A DNA stretch of 64,000 bases from Armatimonadota bacterium (GTDB lineage Bacteria; Armatimonadota; Hebobacteria; CAIYQO01): NCBI GenBank assembly GCA_038248345.1, contig JBBRXO010000006.1, positions 10-64,009 on the forward strand, read 5' to 3'. Of this stretch, positions 3,041 to 52,087 are shown in pieces; the first letter of the stretch is position 1, and each line of letters starts with the position of its first letter. The translations under genes were made by a program, and so were the position numbers. The notes beneath the pieces were generated by a model that was not told the origin of the DNA, did no database searches, and saw only the letters and a program-made list of their open reading frames with translations.

Positions 3041-3121
3041 GCTACTAACATAGCCTCGGGTGAAGCCCGGAGGCGGCTTTTTTTTCCTTCACCGGGTTTC
3101 GCCCGGGGCTATGTTAGTAGC
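3041..3121. repeat. long imperfect palindrome (about 30-bp arms, 21-nt T-rich loop) between the convergent phosphatase and scpA genes; probable bidirectional terminator or structured element
   Basis: gctactaacatagcctcgggtgaagcccgg ... ccgggtttcgcccggggctatgttagtagc. Confidence 0.5.
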
Positions 3122-9315: not shown

Positions 9316-11145
9316 TTACTCTACTGTGACGCTCTTCGCCAGGTTGCGCGGCTGGTCGATGTCGAAGCCGAGGTAATCAGCACAGAAGTACGCCAGTAGT
9401 TGCAGCGGCAGTACCGCTAATATCGGAGTGAATAACTCTTCCGTGCGCGGGATGGGGATTACGTCGTCGGCGGATTTGCCCAGATCCTTGTCGTCCTTCG
9501 CGCCTACGGCGATGACGTGCCCTTCACGCGCTTTCACTTCCTTGATATTCGAGAGCATCTTGTCATACACACTACCCGGCACCGCAATGGCCACCGTGGG
9601 GCACTCCGGGGTGATGAGGGCGATGGGGCCGTGCTTCATCTCGCCAGCGGCGTAGCCTTCGGCATGGATATAGCTGATCTCCTTGAGTTTCAACGCCCCC
9701 TCCAGCGCAGTGGGGAAGTTCACCCCGCGGCCCAGGTAGAGCATCGAGTTTACGTTATGGAAGCGGCGGCTAAAATCCTTCACCATCTCATGCTCTTCCA
9801 GCACTTCCTTCATCTGCTCGGGGAGTTTCTCCAGTGCGATGATCAGTTCGGCGGCGCGTGCAGCGGAGAGCATACCGCGCTGCTCGCCCAGGTAGAGCGC
9901 CAGCAGGTACATCACCATCAACTGCGTGCTATAGGCCTTGGTGCTGGCGACGGCGATCTCTGGGCCGGCGTAGGTGTAGAGCGTACTGTCCGCCTCGCGG
10001 TCGACCGAACTGCCCACCACATTGGTGATAGCCAGCACGTGTGCGCCGCGTTCCTTGGCCTCGCGCAGCCCCGCCAATGTGTCGGCGGTCTCGCCGGACT
10101 GGCTGATGATGATCGCCAACGTGTGTTTGTCGATGACCGGGTCACGGTAGCGGAATTCGCTGGCCACGTCGATCTCCACCGCCAGCCGTGCCAGCTGTTC
10201 AATGGCGTATTTGCCCACATAGCCTGCATGGTAGGCGGTGCCGCAGGAGATGATCGAGACCTTGGTGATATTGCGCACTTCTTCGGCGGTGAGATTAAAA
10301 CCGGGAAGAATTACTCCCGTGCGGTCATCGCGCAGACGTCCGCGCAGCGTCTCCGCCAGCGCCACCGGCTGCTCATTGATCTCCTTCAGCATGTAGTGCT
10401 TGTAGCCACCCTTCTCCGCCGCCAGCGCGTCCCACTGCACGATTGATACCTCCGCCGTCACAGGGGTGCCGTCCAGCGTGGTGAGGGTGATGCCATCGGC
10501 GGTTACTACCGCGACTTCACCGTTTTTCAGGTAGGTCACTTTGCGGGTATGCATGAGGATAGCGGGCACATCAGAGGCGACGAAATTCTCCTCATCTCCG
10601 TGTCCCAGAATCAGCGGGCTATGCAGGCGCGCCGCCACCATCGACTCCGGCTCATCCTTACAGATCGCCACCATCGCGTAGGAACCTTCGATAAGCTTCA
10701 ACGTGGCGCACACCGCATCATAGAGGTTACCCGCATAAAATTTTTCGATCAGGTGCGCCAGCACTTCGGTGTCGGTCTCCGAGGTGAAGACGTGGCCCTC
10801 TGCCTGGAGTTGTTCACGTAACTGCAGGTAGTTCTCTACAATACCGTTATGCACCACCGAGAATTTACCCGAGCAATCGCAATGCGGGTGCGAGTTCTTA
10901 TCACTCGGTGCCCCATGCGTGGCCCAGCGTGTGTGCCCGATGCCCAGATGGCCATGGACGGGAGCTGAGTGCAGCTCTTTCGTCAGGTTCTCCAGTTTGC
11001 CCTTGCGGCGCTTAACAACGACCTCACCATCCGAGAGGATAGCCACCCCCGCCGAGTCATAACCACGGTACTCCAACTTCGCCAGACCCTCGATGAGAAT
11101 CTGCGTGGCATTGGCCGTCCCGATATATCCCACAATTCCGCACAT
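9316..11145 (-). CDS. glmS: glutamine--fructose-6-phosphate aminotransferase
   Basis: 609 aa. MCGIVGY N-terminal nucleophile amidotransferase start and two SIS domains; ends KSVTVE. Confidence 0.95.
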   Translation of the reverse strand: MCGIVGYIGTANATQILIEGLAKLEYRGYDSAGVAILSDGEVVVKRRKGKLENLTKELHSAPVHGHLGIGHTRWATHGAPSDKNSHPHCDCSGKFSVVHNGIVENYLQLREQLQAEGHVFTSETDTEVLAHLIEKFYAGNLYDAVCATLKLIEGSYAMVAICKDEPESMVAARLHSPLILGHGDEENFVASDVPAILMHTRKVTYLKNGEVAVVTADGITLTTLDGTPVTAEVSIVQWDALAAEKGGYKHYMLKEINEQPVALAETLRGRLRDDRTGVILPGFNLTAEEVRNITKVSIISCGTAYHAGYVGKYAIEQLARLAVEIDVASEFRYRDPVIDKHTLAIIISQSGETADTLAGLREAKERGAHVLAITNVVGSSVDREADSTLYTYAGPEIAVASTKAYSTQLMVMYLLALYLGEQRGMLSAARAAELIIALEKLPEQMKEVLEEHEMVKDFSRRFHNVNSMLYLGRGVNFPTALEGALKLKEISYIHAEGYAAGEMKHGPIALITPECPTVAIAVPGSVYDKMLSNIKEVKAREGHVIAVGAKDDKDLGKSADDVIPIPRTEELFTPILAVLPLQLLAYFCADYLGFDIDQPRNLAKSVTVE

Positions 11146-37199: not shown

Positions 37200-38333
37200 A
37201 TGGAAAATCAGGTGACAGGTATACATACGTCAGTAGGGGTAGTGGAGACGAAATATTTCCACTACGACGATAAGCTGCAGCTCGAATCCGGGGAGTCCGT
37301 GGGGCCCCTCACCATCGCTTACGAAACTTACGGAATCCTGAACCCAGCGAAAGACAATGCCATCCTGATCGTTCACTCCCTCACCAGTGACGCCCATGCG
37401 GCTGGTCTGCATGAGGGTGATGACCCCGCCAAACCGGGCTGGTGGGAGATGATGATCGGCCCCGGCAAGGCCTTTGACACCGAGCGTTTCTTCGTCGTCT
37501 GCTCCAATGTGCTGGGTGGGTGCCGGGGAACTACTGGGCCTACCTCGGTAAACCCGGATACCGGCGAACTATTCGGCATGACCTTTCCCATCATCACCGT
37601 CGGCGATATGGTGAATACCCAAGTTTTGCTGACCGATCACCTGGGGATCGACTGTTGGGCCGCTGTTTCCGGCGGCAGCATGGGCGGGATGCAGGCACTG
37701 CAATGGGCGGTAGCCTATCCTGACCGAGTGGCTCGCTGCATCCCCATCGCCACCACGCACCGGCTGACGGCACAAGGTATCGCCTTCAGCGCCGTGGGCC
37801 GCGCCAGCATCATGAGTGATCCGCACTGGTGTAACGGTGAATATTATAAAAACGCCGTGGGGCCGGATAGCGGGCTGGCCGTGGCGCGCATGATCGCGCA
37901 TATCACTTATCTTTCCGAACAGGCGATGCACGAAAAATTTGGCCGCAGTCTGCGGCATGCCGAAGCCTACTCATGGAATTTCTCCCCCGAATTCTCCGTG
38001 GAGACCTATCTGCAATATCAGGGTCATTCCTTTGTCAAGCGTTTTGATGCCAACAGTTACCTCTACATCACCAAAGCGATGGACTACTTCGACCTAGGTG
38101 CCGCTTCTGGATCGCTGGCAGCAGCGATGGTAGGGGTGCGGGCACGCTTCCTGGTAATTTCCTTCAGTAGCGACTGGCTCTTCCCCACTCCGCAATCGCG
38201 CGAAATTGTGCGCGCACTGCGCTGGAACGGTATCGATGTAAGCTTTGTAGAGCTATCCACCCCCCACGGTCACGATGCCTTCCTGCTGGAATATGAAGAG
38301 CAGACACAATTAATCCGTGGGTTTCTGGGGTAA
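37200..38333 (+). CDS. metX: homoserine O-acetyltransferase
   Basis: 377 aa. alpha/beta hydrolase with GGSMGGMQAL nucleophile elbow and MetX N-terminal region. Confidence 0.9.
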   Translation: MENQVTGIHTSVGVVETKYFHYDDKLQLESGESVGPLTIAYETYGILNPAKDNAILIVHSLTSDAHAAGLHEGDDPAKPGWWEMMIGPGKAFDTERFFVVCSNVLGGCRGTTGPTSVNPDTGELFGMTFPIITVGDMVNTQVLLTDHLGIDCWAAVSGGSMGGMQALQWAVAYPDRVARCIPIATTHRLTAQGIAFSAVGRASIMSDPHWCNGEYYKNAVGPDSGLAVARMIAHITYLSEQAMHEKFGRSLRHAEAYSWNFSPEFSVETYLQYQGHSFVKRFDANSYLYITKAMDYFDLGAASGSLAAAMVGVRARFLVISFSSDWLFPTPQSREIVRALRWNGIDVSFVELSTPHGHDAFLLEYEEQTQLIRGFLG

Positions 38334-38412
38334 CAGAATAAAAACATAACTCCTTTCAAAAGAATCAGAAATGAAGTGACACCCCGGTAATTAATTCCGG
38401 AGCTATCGAAAA

Positions 38413-38545
38413 CGCCCCATGAATGGGACTTTACCGGGGGAAACAAGCCCCATTCATGGGGCGCATTACGATAGCCCCGTCCTTCAGGGCGGGGAATGGG
38501 GCAGACGGACTTAAACACTCTAAATCAGCCTTGGAACTTGAAACT
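38413..38545 (+). repeat. dispersed composite repeat (family C): 15-bp-stem hairpin, CCCCATTCATGGGGCGCA core, CCCCGTCCTTCAGGGCGGGG hairpin, AACACTCTAAATCAGCC, then TTGGAAC heptads
   Basis: Sub-segments recur at 54450-54515 (inverted; about 27-bp and 20-bp matches) and 63082-63114 (27/33 match). Confidence 0.65.
38531..38544 (+). promoter_or_regulatory. tandem heptanucleotide tract (TTGGAAC)(TTGAAAC) upstream of a 22-codon small ORF
   Basis: Seen in sequence. Confidence 0.55.
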
Positions 38546-46723: not shown

Positions 46724-46885
46724 AATTTCATCCTTTTGTATTTGACATATGGAAGATACATCTGTACCATATCTACGTTATCGGTAATAATTATTACCGA
46801 TAACTGCCAATACCTGTCATATTTATTAACGATTTTGGCCATTATCTGTAATAATTATGACATATAATGGCATTATTAGGGAGAG

Positions 46886-46950
46886 TTACAATAACGCGCC
46901 ACGGCGGGCGGAATCAATAGTTATAACGCGCCACGGCGGGCGCGGGCTAC
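46886..46950 (-). repeat. REP family A cluster (2 copies, inverted relative to the right-hand cluster), left flank of RAYT
   Basis: aacgcgccacggcgggcgg ... aacgcgccacggcgggcgcgggctacag. The reverse complement of CTGTAGCCCGCGCCCGCCGTGGCGCG contains the restored RAYT stop codon. Confidence 0.8.
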
Positions 46951-47473
46951 AGAATTGAATCTACGATAGCTGAATATGGATACTGTTGCCAATCCTCCAC
47001 GATTCCTTTTCGCACTGGATTTTTCAAAATATAATTTATCGTTTCGTTGATTTCACCGTCATGTCGCAGGGCATGATCATAAAACTACGTTGCCAGAGTT
47101 TTCCACTACCACCATGCTTCCACCATATCTGGGATGTCGTATACGATTTAAAATCCTCTATAGCAGTCAGTACATTTTCTATCGTTCCACCGACTGCTCC
47201 CATATTACGATATTCAGTTATCGTCTCACGAATCTGCACTAGGAAATGCAGGTGATCTGGCATCAAACAATAGCAAAGAAGGTAAAATTCATGCTTTTTA
47301 CGACGCCACAACAACGATTCAATTACGCCATTTGCTATCTCATCATTTAAAAATGGCTTCTGATGCTGACTGGCATTGATTGTAAAGAAAAATTCTGTAC
47401 CACTATATGTATACTGCTCAACAGACAAGCGATGTCGCTTGGTAATAATACGGCCATCATTACGATCGTTCAA
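46944..47473 (-). pseudogene. REP-associated tyrosine transposase (RAYT / TnpA_REP, IS200-like HuH), interrupted by a -1 frameshift
   Basis: ORF 47036-47473 carries the HuH motif YCLMPDHLHFLV and WQRSF. The expected C-terminus (FYDHALRHDGEINETINYILKNPVRKGIVEDWQQYPYSAI) continues in another frame. One extra T in the minus-strand T4 run (plus strand AAAA near 47081-47084) would restore it. The restored ORF ends with TAG inside the REP at 46944. Flanked by inverted REP clusters. Confidence 0.75.
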
Positions 47474-47519
47474 ATATTCGATCTATTCATCGTAACTCAT
47501 ACTACCCTCGACAAAAGAC

Positions 47520-47612
47520 ATCTGTAGCCCGCGCCCGCCGTGGCGCGTATTCGTAACCCGCGCCCGCCGTGGCGCGAATCTGTAACCCGCGCCTGCTGTG
47601 GCGCGCATTTGT
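47520..47612 (+). repeat. REP family A cluster (3 tandem copies at 29-bp period), right flank of RAYT (BIME-like)
   Basis: ctGTAGCCCGCGCCCGCCGTGGCGCGta / ttcGTAACCCGCGCCCGCCGTGGCGCGaa / tctGTAACCCGCGCCTGCTGTGGCGCGca. 5-nt linkers are too short for CRISPR spacers. Confidence 0.8.
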
Positions 47613-47623
47613 TTTTTAATGGA

Positions 47624-50600
47624 TTATATCGTTGTTATCCCCACTACAATCTCCTCGCCTCCCAACTCTACCGTCGCGTTATAAACTTCGGCGGGGACAG
47701 TGTCGAAGTTCACGACATCAGACAGCGTCTCGGCCATCAAATAGGCTAGGTTATCCGCGATTGCGGTCGCTAATTCCTCGGATAACTGCAATGTCAGCGT
47801 TATATGATCGCTGATCTGGAGCGCGGCGTCTTTGCGCGCGTCCTGCACGGCGCGCACCAGGTCGCGTGCCAACCCTTCGCGGCGCAGCTCCTCGGTGATC
47901 TCGGTATTCAGCGCCACCACGTAGCCGCCGTCTTCTGCCACGGCGAAACCTTCGGGAGAAGAGGTCTCGATGAGAATCTCTTCACCGGTGAACTGCATCA
48001 CCTCTCCGGCGACAGTCAACGGGAAGCTCTCGCCGGCTTTGGATGCGGCCACCATCGCTTGCGCGGTCGGCTGGTCAATAAGCAGCAAAGCCTCTTTCAT
48101 GGCCGGCACCAGCTTGCCATATTTGCGCCCTACCACCGGCAAGTTCGGCTTGAAGTTGTACTTCACCAGCCCGCTCTCGCCATCGAGGAAACGTACATCC
48201 TTCACGTTCAGCTCATCACGCAATACTTCGATAAACTGCGCCAGACTCGCTTTCTCGGCATCGCCGGGCACGTGTACCAGCAGCTCTGCCAGTGGCTGGC
48301 GAATCTTCCAGCCGGATTCGGCACGTGCGGAGCGGCCCAGCTCTACTGTCTTCAACAGCACCGACATGTCGGTGTCCAGTTGCGTGTCGAGCAGACTCGC
48401 ATCCACCACCGGCCATGCGGCCAGGTGGACGCTCTCCGCCTCCCCCTGCCCGTCGGTCAAGTTTCGATAGATCTCCTCGCTGATGAACGGCGCAAACGGC
48501 GCGGTCAATTTCGCTACCGTGAGCAAGCAGGTGTAGAGCGTATAATAAGCCGCCTGTTTGTCGGCGTCCGCCTCGCTCTTCCAGAAACGACGGCGATTGC
48601 GGCGCAGATACCAGTTGGAGAGCAGGTCGACGAACTCCTCCACCGCGCGGCCCGCCTCGGTGACGCGGTAATGCTCCAGGTGCTCGGTCACTTCGCCGAT
48701 AACCAGCTGCAGCCGTGACAGCGCCCATTTGTCGATCTTCGCCAGTTCCATCGGCATCTCGCCCGGCGTCCAGCCGTCCAGATTAGCATAGGTAACGCAG
48801 AAGCTGTAGGTATTCCACAGCGTCAGGAGGAATTTGCGCACCGACTCCGCCACCAGCAACCCGCTGAATCGACGCGGATTCCCCGGCGTGGTGCAGGTGA
48901 AGAGATACCAGCGTAGGGCGTCAACACCATGCGCATCGATGATCTCCCACGGGTCGATCACATTCCCCTTGGACTTCGACATTTTGAAGCCCTTTTCATC
49001 GAGGATGTGCCCAAGGCAGATGACGTTTTTGAACGCTGGTTCGCCGGTAAGCAAAGTAGAAAGCGCATGCAAGCTGTAGAACCACCCGCGTGTCTGGTCC
49101 ACCGCTTCGGAGATGAAATCTGCCTGGCGCACGTGATGCTCGTCCACCCACTGCTTGTTTTCAAAGGGATAATGCCACTGCGAAACCGGCATGGCACCGC
49201 TATCGAACCAGGCGTCGAGTACCTCGGGCAAGCGGCGCATTTCACCGCCACACTTGCTGCACGGCCAGGTCACTTCGTCTATATATGGGCGGTGCAGATC
49301 CAGCTCGGTGCAATCGCGTCCCGCTTTAGTGCTCAATTCGGCCACGCTGCCGATACATTCCTGCTGCCCACAGGCACATTCCCAGATAGGCAGTGGTGTG
49401 CCCCAGTAGCGCTCGCGGCTGATGGCCCAGTCGATGTTGTTCTCCAGCCAGTTACCGAAGCGCCCGTTTTTGATATGCTCCGGCTGCCAGGTGATCTCCT
49501 GGTTCCCGCTGATGAGTCGGTCTTTCACTGCAGTAGTACGGATATACCAGCTGGTTTTGGCGTAAAAGAGCAGCGCGGTGCTGCAGCGCCAGCAGAACGG
49601 GTAGGTGTGCTTGGTGCGCGCGGACTTGAACATCAAGTTGCGGTTCTTCAATTCGCGGATGATATGCGAATCTGCATCCTTGAAGAAGCGCGTCTCGAAC
49701 TGCGCCAGCTCCGGCAGCATCTTCCCCTGCAGGTCCACCGAGAAGAGCGTGGGCAGCCCGTGCCGTCGCCCGATCTCCAGGTCACCATAGGCAGGGGCGA
49801 TATGCACGATACCGGTGCCGTCGCCCAGGCTCACGTAGTCATCGGCAACTACGGTGTAGGCTTTGGACATATCGGTGGCCACACCTACACCCGGCACGCC
49901 GGGGTAGAGGTTCTCATAGACGATACCGGCCAGCTCTGCACCGGTGAAGCGGCGAATAATCGTCGCTTCCTCGCCGAGGTTAGCGGTCATCAACGCTTCT
50001 GCCAGCACAAAGGTCTCTTCGCCCAGTTGCGCAGCCACGTAGTCGCCCCCGGGCTTCACCGCCACCGCCACATTGGCGGGCAGCGTCCACGGGGTAGTTG
50101 TCCAGGCGAGGAAATATACATCGCCGGCCAGCCCCGCCAGCGGGGCGGGCAGCTGCCCGTCTACGCGTGCTACCTTGAATTTCGGCCAGATGCTCGGATC
50201 TTCAGTGTCATCCTTGTAACCCTGCGCCACTTCATGGTCGCTTAGGGTGGTGACACAGCGCGGGCAGTGCATATTCACCTTGTAGTCGCGATAGAGCAGC
50301 CCGCGATCCCACAGGTTCTTCAGAATCCACCAGTTGCTCTCCAGATACTCATTTTTGTAGGTGATGTACGGGTTTTCCAGATCGATCCAGTAACCGATGC
50401 GATCGGTCATCTTCTCCCATTCCTGTACGTAGCGAAAGACGCTGCCTTTGCATTTCTCATTGAAGGGGGCGATGCCGTACTGCTCGATGTCGTGCTTGCC
50501 TTCCAGCTTCAATTCGCGCTCAATCTCCAGCTCCACCGGCAATCCCTGGGTATCCCAGCCGCCGCGTGCTCCGATGATATGGAAGCCATTCATGCGCTTG

Positions 50601-50812
50601 TAGCGCAGCATGATATCCTTAAAAGCGCGCGCGAGCACGTGGTGCACACCGGGGCGGCCATTGGCAGTGGGAGGGCCTTCAAAGAAGATGAAATCCGGGC
50701 CATCCTCGGTGCCACTCATGGCGCGGCGCGGCACATCGGCCTCACGCCACCAGGCGAGAACCTCTTCTTCTAATTTCGGGAACGATACCTGTGAAGCTAC
50801 ACTACGAAACAC
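47624..50812 (-). CDS. ileS: isoleucine--tRNA ligase (type 2)
   Basis: 1062 aa. PTANGRPGVHHV HIGH region, KMSKS (FKMSKSKGN). GTG start with AAGGAG RBS. Confidence 0.95.
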   Translation of the reverse strand: MFRSVASQVSFPKLEEEVLAWWREADVPRRAMSGTEDGPDFIFFEGPPTANGRPGVHHVLARAFKDIMLRYKRMNGFHIIGARGGWDTQGLPVELEIERELKLEGKHDIEQYGIAPFNEKCKGSVFRYVQEWEKMTDRIGYWIDLENPYITYKNEYLESNWWILKNLWDRGLLYRDYKVNMHCPRCVTTLSDHEVAQGYKDDTEDPSIWPKFKVARVDGQLPAPLAGLAGDVYFLAWTTTPWTLPANVAVAVKPGGDYVAAQLGEETFVLAEALMTANLGEEATIIRRFTGAELAGIVYENLYPGVPGVGVATDMSKAYTVVADDYVSLGDGTGIVHIAPAYGDLEIGRRHGLPTLFSVDLQGKMLPELAQFETRFFKDADSHIIRELKNRNLMFKSARTKHTYPFCWRCSTALLFYAKTSWYIRTTAVKDRLISGNQEITWQPEHIKNGRFGNWLENNIDWAISRERYWGTPLPIWECACGQQECIGSVAELSTKAGRDCTELDLHRPYIDEVTWPCSKCGGEMRRLPEVLDAWFDSGAMPVSQWHYPFENKQWVDEHHVRQADFISEAVDQTRGWFYSLHALSTLLTGEPAFKNVICLGHILDEKGFKMSKSKGNVIDPWEIIDAHGVDALRWYLFTCTTPGNPRRFSGLLVAESVRKFLLTLWNTYSFCVTYANLDGWTPGEMPMELAKIDKWALSRLQLVIGEVTEHLEHYRVTEAGRAVEEFVDLLSNWYLRRNRRRFWKSEADADKQAAYYTLYTCLLTVAKLTAPFAPFISEEIYRNLTDGQGEAESVHLAAWPVVDASLLDTQLDTDMSVLLKTVELGRSARAESGWKIRQPLAELLVHVPGDAEKASLAQFIEVLRDELNVKDVRFLDGESGLVKYNFKPNLPVVGRKYGKLVPAMKEALLLIDQPTAQAMVAASKAGESFPLTVAGEVMQFTGEEILIETSSPEGFAVAEDGGYVVALNTEITEELRREGLARDLVRAVQDARKDAALQISDHITLTLQLSEELATAIADNLAYLMAETLSDVVNFDTVPAEVYNATVELGGEEIVVGITTI

Positions 50813-51103
50813 TGTGGCACTCCTTAATGAGAAAAGAGTTAGCAGTTAGTTTGATTGCTAACTACTAACCCTGCTGAAAAATCTGATCTGTTATTTTTTT
50901 CCAATTCCACCACGAAGTGGTGGTGGAATATAGCCCAGGGCGTAAGCCTTGGGATTGATTTTATCTATATTGCATCTCACCCCGAAGGGGTGACGGAAGA
51001 GTAGTCCACCACCACTTCGGGGTGGAATTAAAACTAAACTCTCTGACCCGGCGCTTACGCACCGGGCTATATTCCACCACCACTTTGTGGTGATATTCAA
51101 TGA
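50813..51103 (-). promoter_or_regulatory. highly structured 291-nt ileS 5' leader with attenuator-like terminator; candidate T-box-type or novel riboswitch, or an inserted MITE
   Basis: About 45-bp inverted repeat (50908-50960 vs 51040-51093). Several C(UUCG)G-loop hairpins on the transcribed strand (from ccaccacGAAGtggtggtgg, tcaccccGAAGgggtga). Hairpin GUUAGUAGUUAGC..CUAACUGCUAAC followed by UCUUUUCUC about 15 nt before the AAGGAG RBS. Confidence 0.5.
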
Positions 51104-52087
51104 TTATTTCTTCAACTTGCTGAACAGATTGCCAAACATATCGCCCAGGGTTGGGGTGGCGACGCTTTCGGCTTTCTGTTTCTGCATAAATTCGCGGGTT
51201 TCGTTACGTTCGCGATCGCGGGCTACTTGCTTGATGCTCAGCGTCATGCGGCGGTCACGCGGGCGGAATTCTATAACCTTGACGGATACGACCTGGCCCA
51301 CTGCTACTGCTTCCGCTGGTGTTTCGATGCGATGTTCGGTCATTTCGCGAGTGGGGATGGTGGCATCTACGCCTTTCATGACCAGCGCAGTAGCGCCAAA
51401 ACTTTCCAGCTTGGTGATGGTGACCTCAATAATAGAACCTTCGCGGATCTGCTTGTAAGCTGCTGTCCACGGATCATCTTCTAATTGTTTCAAGCCGAGA
51501 GAGATGCGTTTGCTATCTTTCTCTACGCGCAGTACTTTAAGCTGCAACTGCTGATCGATTTGCAGAAACTCTTCTGTTTTCTCTACACGATCCCAGGAGA
51601 TGTCCGAGACGTGTAGCAACCCATCAACACCGCCGATGTCGACAAAGGCGCCGAATTCGGTAATGCGGCGTACCACACCATCGACCAGCTGACCGGGTTT
51701 CAGGTTTATCATCAGCTCTTTCCGTTGCACAGCGCGCTTTTCTTCATCAGCACGGCGCTCGGAACAGATTACCCGCCCCTTTTCCTTGTCGACTTCAGAA
51801 ATTTTAAATTCGACCATATGGCCGATGTAGCGTTCTAAGCCATCCAGATCACGGGTAGCAATCTGTGATTTAGGGATGAAACCACGTACGCCCAGGTCAA
51901 TGACCAGCCCGCCCTTTACCGCGTCTACCACGGTGGAGGAAAGGGTGACTTGCGATTTACGGGCTTCTTCAAGAGATTCCCACATCTTATCATAGTCACT
52001 AGAAGTGCCGGCGGTGACAATACCACCCTCGGCAACTACAGAATCATCGACTTCAGCGGCGAAGTCTTCGGCAAACTCGTCAGGCAT
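51104..52087 (-). CDS. rpsA: S1 RNA-binding domain protein (short ribosomal protein S1-like, about 4 S1 repeats)
   Basis: 327 aa. Repeated GxV.G.V....GaFVdiGg S1 motifs; acidic N-terminus. Confidence 0.75.
   Translation of the reverse strand: MPDEFAEDFAAEVDDSVVAEGGIVTAGTSSDYDKMWESLEEARKSQVTLSSTVVDAVKGGLVIDLGVRGFIPKSQIATRDLDGLERYIGHMVEFKISEVDKEKGRVICSERRADEEKRAVQRKELMINLKPGQLVDGVVRRITEFGAFVDIGGVDGLLHVSDISWDRVEKTEEFLQIDQQLQLKVLRVEKDSKRISLGLKQLEDDPWTAAYKQIREGSIIEVTITKLESFGATALVMKGVDATIPTREMTEHRIETPAEAVAVGQVVSVKVIEFRPRDRRMTLSIKQVARDRERNETREFMQKQKAESVATPTLGDMFGNLFSKLKK

Follow-up and report, generated by a model that had tools for sequence, protein, structure and literature searches.

The structured spacer upstream of ileS in an Armatimonadota-like lineage is mostly made of an inverted pair of Acido-Lenti-1 repeat units

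Genes for isoleucine–tRNA ligase, ileS, are regulated by T-boxes in several Gram-positive and related phyla. REP and REPIN sequences are present at tens to hundreds of copies per genome. These repeats, BIMEs and the RAYT genes have been described in several studies (Bertels and Rainey; Di Nocera et al., 2013, PMC3733652; PMC3337134), and the usual site of REP-type repeats is 3′ of genes (Di Nocera et al., 2013, PMC3733652). Acido-Lenti-1 (RF01687) was first described from Acidobacteria and Lentisphaerae (Weinberg et al., 2010, PMC2864571). On the strength of covariation, Rfam and the original study both class it as probably a non-coding RNA (Weinberg et al., 2010, PMC2864571), and its Rfam type is sRNA.

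The published Acido-Lenti-1 alignment of 87 sequences (PMC2864571, supplementary file 183), in which we counted the family statistics given here, has 56 sequences from a single genome, and 42 of the 87 have a neighbour at most 1 kb away. Adjacent pairs are direct in 23 cases, often with constant spacing, and inverted in four, with 54–106 nt between the copies. Judged from the alignment, these multi-copy and clustered sequences fit a dispersed palindromic repeat, not a single-copy regulator. Furthermore, the stem cells that are not Watson–Crick pairs are A·C in 38 cases vs. G·U in 8, indicating that the annotated strand folds worse than its complement. Acido-Lenti-1 may have been annotated on the wrong strand, or it may act as DNA.

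The DNA analysed here, called the window, is a stretch of 64 kb from an Armatimonadota-like lineage. Its minus strand carries an S1-domain gene and, downstream of it across a spacer of 291 nt, ileS. L009 and L010 in the following lines are the two closest relatives, introduced below.

51104–52087, minus strand: S1-domain protein gene, 327 aa, ribosomal protein S1-like, with three stretches matching Pfam S1.
50885–51103, minus strand: variable distal part of the spacer, 219 nt, unalignable with relatives.
50813–50884, minus strand: proximal leader common to L009, 72 nt with 2 differences.
50835–50872, minus strand: AU-rich 15-bp stem-loop with loop CAAUCAAA, then UUUUCUC, matching the terminator pattern scan.
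50820–50825, minus strand: AAGGAG ribosome-binding site, 7 nt before the ileS GTG, conserved in L009 and L010.
47624–50812, minus strand: ileS, isoleucine–tRNA ligase of 1062 aa, of the type with a DUF5915 C-terminus.

The ileS gene starts with GTG at 50810–50812, and its product contains the Pfam domains tRNA-synt_1, Anticodon_1 and DUF5915 and matches NCBIfam TIGR00392 with 899.9 bits (cutoff 621). NCBIfam ribosomal protein S1 models match the S1-domain product, all below their cutoffs. A search for sigma-70-like promoters found none in the spacer, so that ileS is probably transcribed by read-through from the upstream S1 gene. The entire spacer folds with −139.8 kcal/mol (z = −13.1).

An earlier reading made from the sequence only had taken the spacer for an unusually structured ileS leader, with an inverted repeat of about 45 bp and about 90% identity. 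Indeed, the inverted repeat is real: its arms, 50903–50947 and 51053–51097, are 45 nt each, 89% complementary and separated by 105 nt, and a 20-mer common to the two arms was never seen when the window was shuffled 100 times. In an Rfam scan of the whole window, a single match rises above its gathering score, and this is RF01687. The 45-nt inverted repeat is two inverted copies of the 46-nt two-hairpin Acido-Lenti-1 motif, which we call units A and B.

50903–51097, no strand: composite REPIN/BIME-like element in which units A and B stand head-to-head, hairpin 1 inward, around a 93-nt core.
50908–50953, minus strand: Acido-Lenti-1 unit B, RF01687 with 41.3 bits (gathering score 37), model positions 1–46.
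51047–51092, plus strand, inverted relative to unit B: Acido-Lenti-1 unit A, RF01687 with 33.6 bits, below the gathering score.
51002–51032, plus strand: partial unit, a hairpin-2-like copy only (TCCACCACCACTTCGGGGTGGAA), folding with −12.1 kcal/mol.
50978–50997, minus strand: hairpin-2 variant CACCCC-UUC-GGGGUG, 7 bp with a UUC triloop in the fold.

Unit B has E = 6e-6 over the whole window and a local fold of −25.7 kcal/mol (z = −6.2). Its hairpin 1, CCCAAGGC-UUAC-GCCCUGGG, is followed by a linker, CUAUAUU, and by hairpin 2 (CCACCAC...GUGGUGG). Unit A has E = 7e-4 over the window in a permissive scan and a local fold of −27 kcal/mol (z = −5.8); compared with unit B, its hairpin-1 stem is changed at three positions, leaving one mismatch. 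Both units align to positions 1–46 of the RF01687 model, with the columns of the GGCUA linker and the GCUNACGC core matched, and a script looking for 8-bp stems with 4-nt loops followed by GGCTA returned positions 50953, 51047 and 38494. The 93-nt core between the units contains degenerate hairpin-2 units: the partial unit belongs to the direct-repeat family D1 and to the inverted pairs I2 and I3, and the hairpin-2 variant pairs with 51005–51024 as the inner inverted pair I4, 85% complementary. The whole 195-nt element folds as a single hairpin with −114.3 kcal/mol (z = −13.8).

The sequence-only reading had also listed three CCACCAC hairpins and one CCCC hairpin, and three CCACCAC...GTGGTGG-type hairpins and one CACCCC...GGGGTG hairpin are present. 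Its interpretation of them as C(UUCG)G tetraloops did not hold: UUCG is on the ileS-sense strand in only two of the four hairpins (the others have AAAG and GAAG), and in the registers of the stems the loops are triloops (UUC or AAA) or 6 nt long, with no C-UUCG-G closure. The Rfam consensus for the Acido-Lenti-1 hairpin is also a triloop.

As the element begins only 7 nt past the S1 stop codon, it is better named part of the S1 3′ region than an ileS leader. A 69-aa ORF spanning it (50891–51100, minus strand) is not taken for a gene, as relatives do not have this region.

Orthologous spacers are available from two close relatives, both MAG contigs (GCA_038215455.1 and GCA_037140675.1), whose IleS is 98% (L009) and 96% (L010) identical to that of the window. 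At the nucleotide level, the identities are 92% and 88%, respectively, for ileS, and 83% in both for the S1 gene, which makes them genus-level relatives. The S1–ileS gene order is kept in both, and the spacer measures 291 nt in the window, 232 nt in L009 and 127 nt in L010. In blastn comparisons, homology with both relatives ends exactly at the S1 stop codon (51104 with L009, 51105 with L010) and restarts at 50884 in L009 and at 50856 in L010. The composite element is absent from both orthologous spacers. In L009, a palindromic element unrelated to it (CCTAACCCCC...GGGGGGTTAGG, carrying CCCCTTCCC hairpins) takes up about 160 nt in place of the 219 nt of the window; in L010, only 44 nt without any element lie between the homology breakpoints. 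Because the relatives are only genus-level, the difference could be due to loss there, not gain here.

More distant relatives were also compared, namely three MAGs labelled Armatimonadota with 72–76% IleS identity (L011, L019 and L020), near which the window is placed by its IleS homologues. Their ileS leaders are unrelated to that of the window, each with its own TACAAT promoter; ileS follows a divergently transcribed gene in L019 and L020, and on the L011 contig, ileS is preceded by no more than 154 nt. Rfam models found neither a T-box nor an Acido-Lenti-1 match in these three leaders.

The distal 219 nt are probably a REP/REPIN-like mosaic of Acido-Lenti-1 units in the S1 3′ region, not an isoleucine-responsive leader, a reading that follows from the multi-copy and clustered nature of the published alignment. 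Its two full, mutually inverted units, which enclose degenerate hairpin-2 units, have the architecture of a REP doublet (REPIN/BIME-like), and on this reading it was gained, or retained, only in the lineage of the window. Such units might spread as single-stranded DNA hairpins, moved by a Y1 (RAYT-like) transposase, or else through recombination. The mosaic, if transcribed together with S1 and ileS, would be expected to have a generic effect only, as a very stable intercistronic hairpin giving mRNA 3′-end protection or serving as an RNase III target.

There are further palindromic elements in the window.

38446–38494, minus strand: Acido-Lenti-1-like unit, 28 bits in the permissive whole-window scan, below the gathering score.
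38378–38494: inverted dimer of a diverged Acido-Lenti-1-like unit, 45 nt past ORF 37200–38333.
3041–3121: 81-nt inverted dimer in the gap of two convergent ORFs, with the layout GCTACTAACATAGCC+hairpin ... T8 ... hairpin+GGCTATGTTAGTAGC.
2915–2975 (in L009, 7081–7202): C-rich palindrome of the L009 type (CCCCCTTCCCGCGCCGGGA..GGGCCGGGGGGT(T)AGG), in the window after ORF 1543–2886.
46952–47473, minus strand: ORF of a RAYT gene, between ileS and prmA; the locus with its REPs covers 46885–47612.
1325–1344: exact copy of the RAYT-type REP core, directly past the stop of ORF 62–1324 and 45 kb from the RAYT gene.

The dimer at 38378–38494 is reversed compared with that at ileS, as its hairpin 2 faces inward, and the one at 3041–3121 has a hairpin+GGCTAT layout, as in hairpin 1 of Acido-Lenti-1. 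The dimers, the L009-type palindrome and the REPs all lie just 3′ of stop codons. The RAYT gene is frameshifted between its HUH motif and catalytic tyrosine, and the merged protein matches REP_Tyr_transpos (NCBIfam) with 101.8 bits (cutoff 80). It is flanked by three upstream and two inverted downstream copies of a REP, GTAGCCCGCGCCCGCCGTGGCGCG, in which the tag and stem read GTAGCC+stem. The reverse complement of the repeat unit at ileS reads ATAGCC+stem, which is similar without having the canonical GTAG, and NTAGCC or TCAGCC is found across the seed alignment. L010 does not have the RAYT insertion, its prmA beginning 5 nt past ileS, and L009 has a single REP at this position. The flanks of ileS are accordingly a hot spot for small palindromic elements in this lineage, with three states upstream, and with the RAYT gene and its REPs downstream in the window only.

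No RAYT flanked by Acido-Lenti-1 units was found, either in the window, where the flanking REP is a different one, or at two acidobacterial loci (L012 and L014) recovered as homologues of K. versatilis ORF1552 from the supplement of Di Nocera et al. Acido-Lenti-1 was also considered as a terminal repeat for the acidobacterial RAYT/TIRYT (Di Nocera et al.), which is rejected for that clade, since L012 and L014 are flanked by other double hairpins.

Some observations on these elements stand apart. A single unit related to the 3041–3121 dimer follows ileS in L009 (about 10546–10575). The L009-type palindrome is a further repeat family of the lineage and has a weak, sub-threshold match to the Rfam "mraW RNA" (28 vs. 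50 bits). Past the REP at 1325–1344, there are GC-rich hairpins, GGGCACAAGGCTTGTGCCC (about 1361–1381) and GGGCACATGCCATGTGCCC (about 1432–1452). AT-rich perfect palindromes (GTTATCGGTAATAATTATTACCGATAAC and related copies spaced by 32 nt) lie at 46777–46872, just upstream of prmA; they are about 90% conserved in L009 (10654–10844) and may be an operator or promoter region.

Whether the arms occur elsewhere bears on their mobility, an insertion with terminal inverted repeats having been among the earlier suggestions. Family-like units are present at three loci within the window, so that diverged members do recur, but the exact arm variant is found at ileS only: no further copy was found in the remaining 63.7 kb of the window or in the GTDB species genomes and JGI metagenomes, collections that do not include the source genome. 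A 19-mer scan of the GTDB species genomes gave eight single matches, all by chance and in coding DNA, and a metagenome scan with ACGCNNNGGGCTATATTCCACC gave one related cluster and one probable chance match. The related cluster (L017, JGI contig Ga0210388_10017172, 3100–3330) has three tandem hairpin-1-like units with a 44-nt period (CCCCTTGCTGACGCACGGGGCTACATT) plus one inverted unit; it lies downstream of a 798-aa ORF, and its units are without hairpin 2 and without an Rfam match. Strict regularity is also seen in several Lentisphaera arrays of the published alignment, where same-orientation copies are separated by gaps of 23/23, 28/28/28, 64/65, 69/69 and 146/146 nt.

The ileS-proximal leader proper is the last 72 nt, with the AU-rich stem-loop and the ribosome-binding site. 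The stem-loop folds with −20 kcal/mol (z = −6.9), and no convincing further copy of this stem was found in the window. The earlier reading saw here an attenuator-like terminator about 15 nt before the ribosome-binding site; the stem in fact ends 9 nt before it. The stem itself is present and kept in relatives, and the terminator pattern of stem-loop and U-tract is satisfied in the window and L009. In L010, however, a larger insert, which has a hairpin of its own, stands in place of the loop, and there is no U-tract (CUCCUACUUCAUAUU). Both stem arms (13 + 11 nt) and the Shine–Dalgarno sequence are identical in L010 despite a local fourfold-site divergence of 29% (15/52), which argues that the stem is probably under constraint.

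The near-identity of the proximal leader to L009 has to be read differently. Purifying selection on it had been concluded from the comparison between the window and L009 (P = 1.4e-6), and this result was withdrawn because similarity is just as high in the adjoining 300 nt of ileS, where 2/52 fourfold sites differ. The near-identity is a local low-divergence tract and is not evidence of constraint. Divergence between the two ileS genes (window 47637–50884 vs. L009 7240–10487) is very uneven: the first 300 nt of ileS hold four differences, whereas stretches of 300 nt in the middle differ by about 10%. As the end of the low-divergence tract coincides exactly with the beginning of the repeat elements, a recombination tract with the repeats as its limits is suggested.

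Could the proximal stem-loop with its U-tract be a true attenuator that controls read-through from S1 to ileS by a factor other than a T-box, a protein or a tRNA? Such an attenuator can coexist with the repeat explanation of the distal part, and several points speak for it: the matched terminator pattern with its stable fold, the lack of a sigma-70-like promoter between S1 and ileS, by which transcription probably crosses the stem, the arms and Shine–Dalgarno sequence unchanged in L010, and a loop sequence, AAUCAA, that holds the isoleucine codon AUC and is retained in all three genomes. Against these stand the U-tract missing in L010 and the weakness expected of a terminator with 5 GC pairs out of 15 and an interrupted U-run. 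In addition, no antiterminator partner was seen in conserved sequence, only 12 nt upstream of the stem being common to L009; the near-identity to L009 is explained by the local low-divergence tract; leaders are unrelated in relatives at 72–76% IleS identity; and three related sequences are too few for a covariation test. Terminator function of the stem is doubtful, and we consider the attenuator unlikely.

If the stem-loop were instead a new, T-box-independent control element of ileS, the AAUCAA loop would expose an AUC codon, a possible contact for the tRNA-Ile anticodon or a protein. This proposal would be based on the arms kept in three genomes, with changes in loop and tail, and on the position 9 nt before the ribosome-binding site of a transcript that probably has to come through from S1; we regard it as very improbable.

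For the distal part, the mosaic of repeat units has to be weighed against a classical MITE, in which the 195-nt unit would be a deletion derivative of a DDE-transposase IS, moved via its terminal inverted repeats. Of the options raised by the earlier reading, a MITE-like insertion comes closest to the evidence, in that the arms are copies of a multi-copy motif, though they were not found at many loci in the window and the collections scanned. The 45-nt terminal inverted repeats, small size, intergenic position and presence/absence polymorphism among relatives would all suit a MITE. On the other hand, no target-site duplication was seen at the element ends, where flanks were read in the window with no identical-flank empty site for comparison, and no related IS lies within the window. 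Each arm is, moreover, a two-hairpin unit that occurs elsewhere singly or in direct arrays, which is REP-like and unlike MITE ends. A classical MITE is therefore improbable.

About as improbable is that the units are independently transcribed small RNA genes that lie between S1 and ileS by chance. The classification as a probable non-coding RNA with covariation by Rfam and Weinberg et al. (2010) favours this, but palindromic DNA repeats also keep stem complementarity, so that covariation is not discriminating. Neither unit is adjoined by a promoter-like site, the two lie on different strands and are complementary to one another, arrays and dimers are known in the family, and the excess of A·C over G·U mismatches means that the annotated strand folds worse.

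A divergent T-box, or another riboswitch sensing an amino acid or tRNA, was one suggestion for a long, highly structured spacer before a gene that is a known T-box target in Gram-positive and related phyla, and it is effectively refuted: RF00230 has no match at E ≤ 10 in 50700–51250 (551 nt) and none at gathering score window-wide, the structured part is a long palindrome of repeat units missing from the closest relatives' spacers, and all six ileS leaders of the clade (window plus five relatives) are without a T-box in Rfam scans. No other Rfam leader family matched the 551-nt region even at E ≤ 10, nor did any match the ileS leaders of the five relatives. A cis-regulatory RNA of another kind, likewise proposed for the leader, is not supported for the inverted repeat and could apply only to the proximal stem-loop. 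The ileS genes of this clade seem to be without T-box control, and the one candidate for a leader element is the small conserved stem-loop.

The "structured ileS leader" is thus mostly explained by a known kind of repeat and is ordinary in this sense. A striking, very stable structure before an aminoacyl-tRNA synthetase gene need not be a T-box or riboswitch, and the one found here is a mosaic of repeats that varies among close relatives. What is new is that the host range of Acido-Lenti-1 reaches an Armatimonadota-like lineage, with a clear example of an inverted dimer. The new lineage, the clustering in the alignment and the strand asymmetry together support Acido-Lenti-1 as a REP/REPIN-like DNA repeat, not an sRNA gene. 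That the family as a whole is a REP-type mobile DNA palindrome, possibly acting opposite to its annotated strand, is a tentative proposal, which we hold to be possible rather than probable; it is likelier, and less novel, than the proximal stem-loop as an ileS control element.

Compared with known systems, the spacer resembles a T-box leader only in its position upstream of ileS and in the terminator-like hairpin before the ribosome-binding site; it differs in having no covariance-model match, T-box sequence, specifier-loop architecture or antiterminator alternative, and in a structured region that is unconserved in orthologous leaders. Likeness to Acido-Lenti-1 extends through the 46-nt two-hairpin unit, that is, hairpin 1 (stem of 8 bp, loop of 4 nt, conserved GCUNACGC), the GGCUA linker, and the short hairpin 2 with a UUC loop, and inverted pairs are known among some published family members. 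The differences are the host, Armatimonadota-like here as opposed to Acidobacteria or Lentisphaerae, a longer hairpin 2 (CCACCAC/GUGGUGG), the nearest seed sequence being only 72% identical, and the scores of unit A and of the 38446–38494 unit under the gathering score. From REPs, the unit differs by its tag, ATAG (NTAG or TCAG in the family) where the canonical REP tag is GTAG, and by its two hairpins per unit. It shares with REPs, REPINs and BIMEs a short palindromic unit with an unpaired tag beside the stem (ATAG-CC+stem here; GTAG+stem in REPs), a head-to-head inverted dimer that folds as one long hairpin (−114.3 kcal/mol), a location just 3′ of genes with variable presence in relatives, and a RAYT gene in the same genome.
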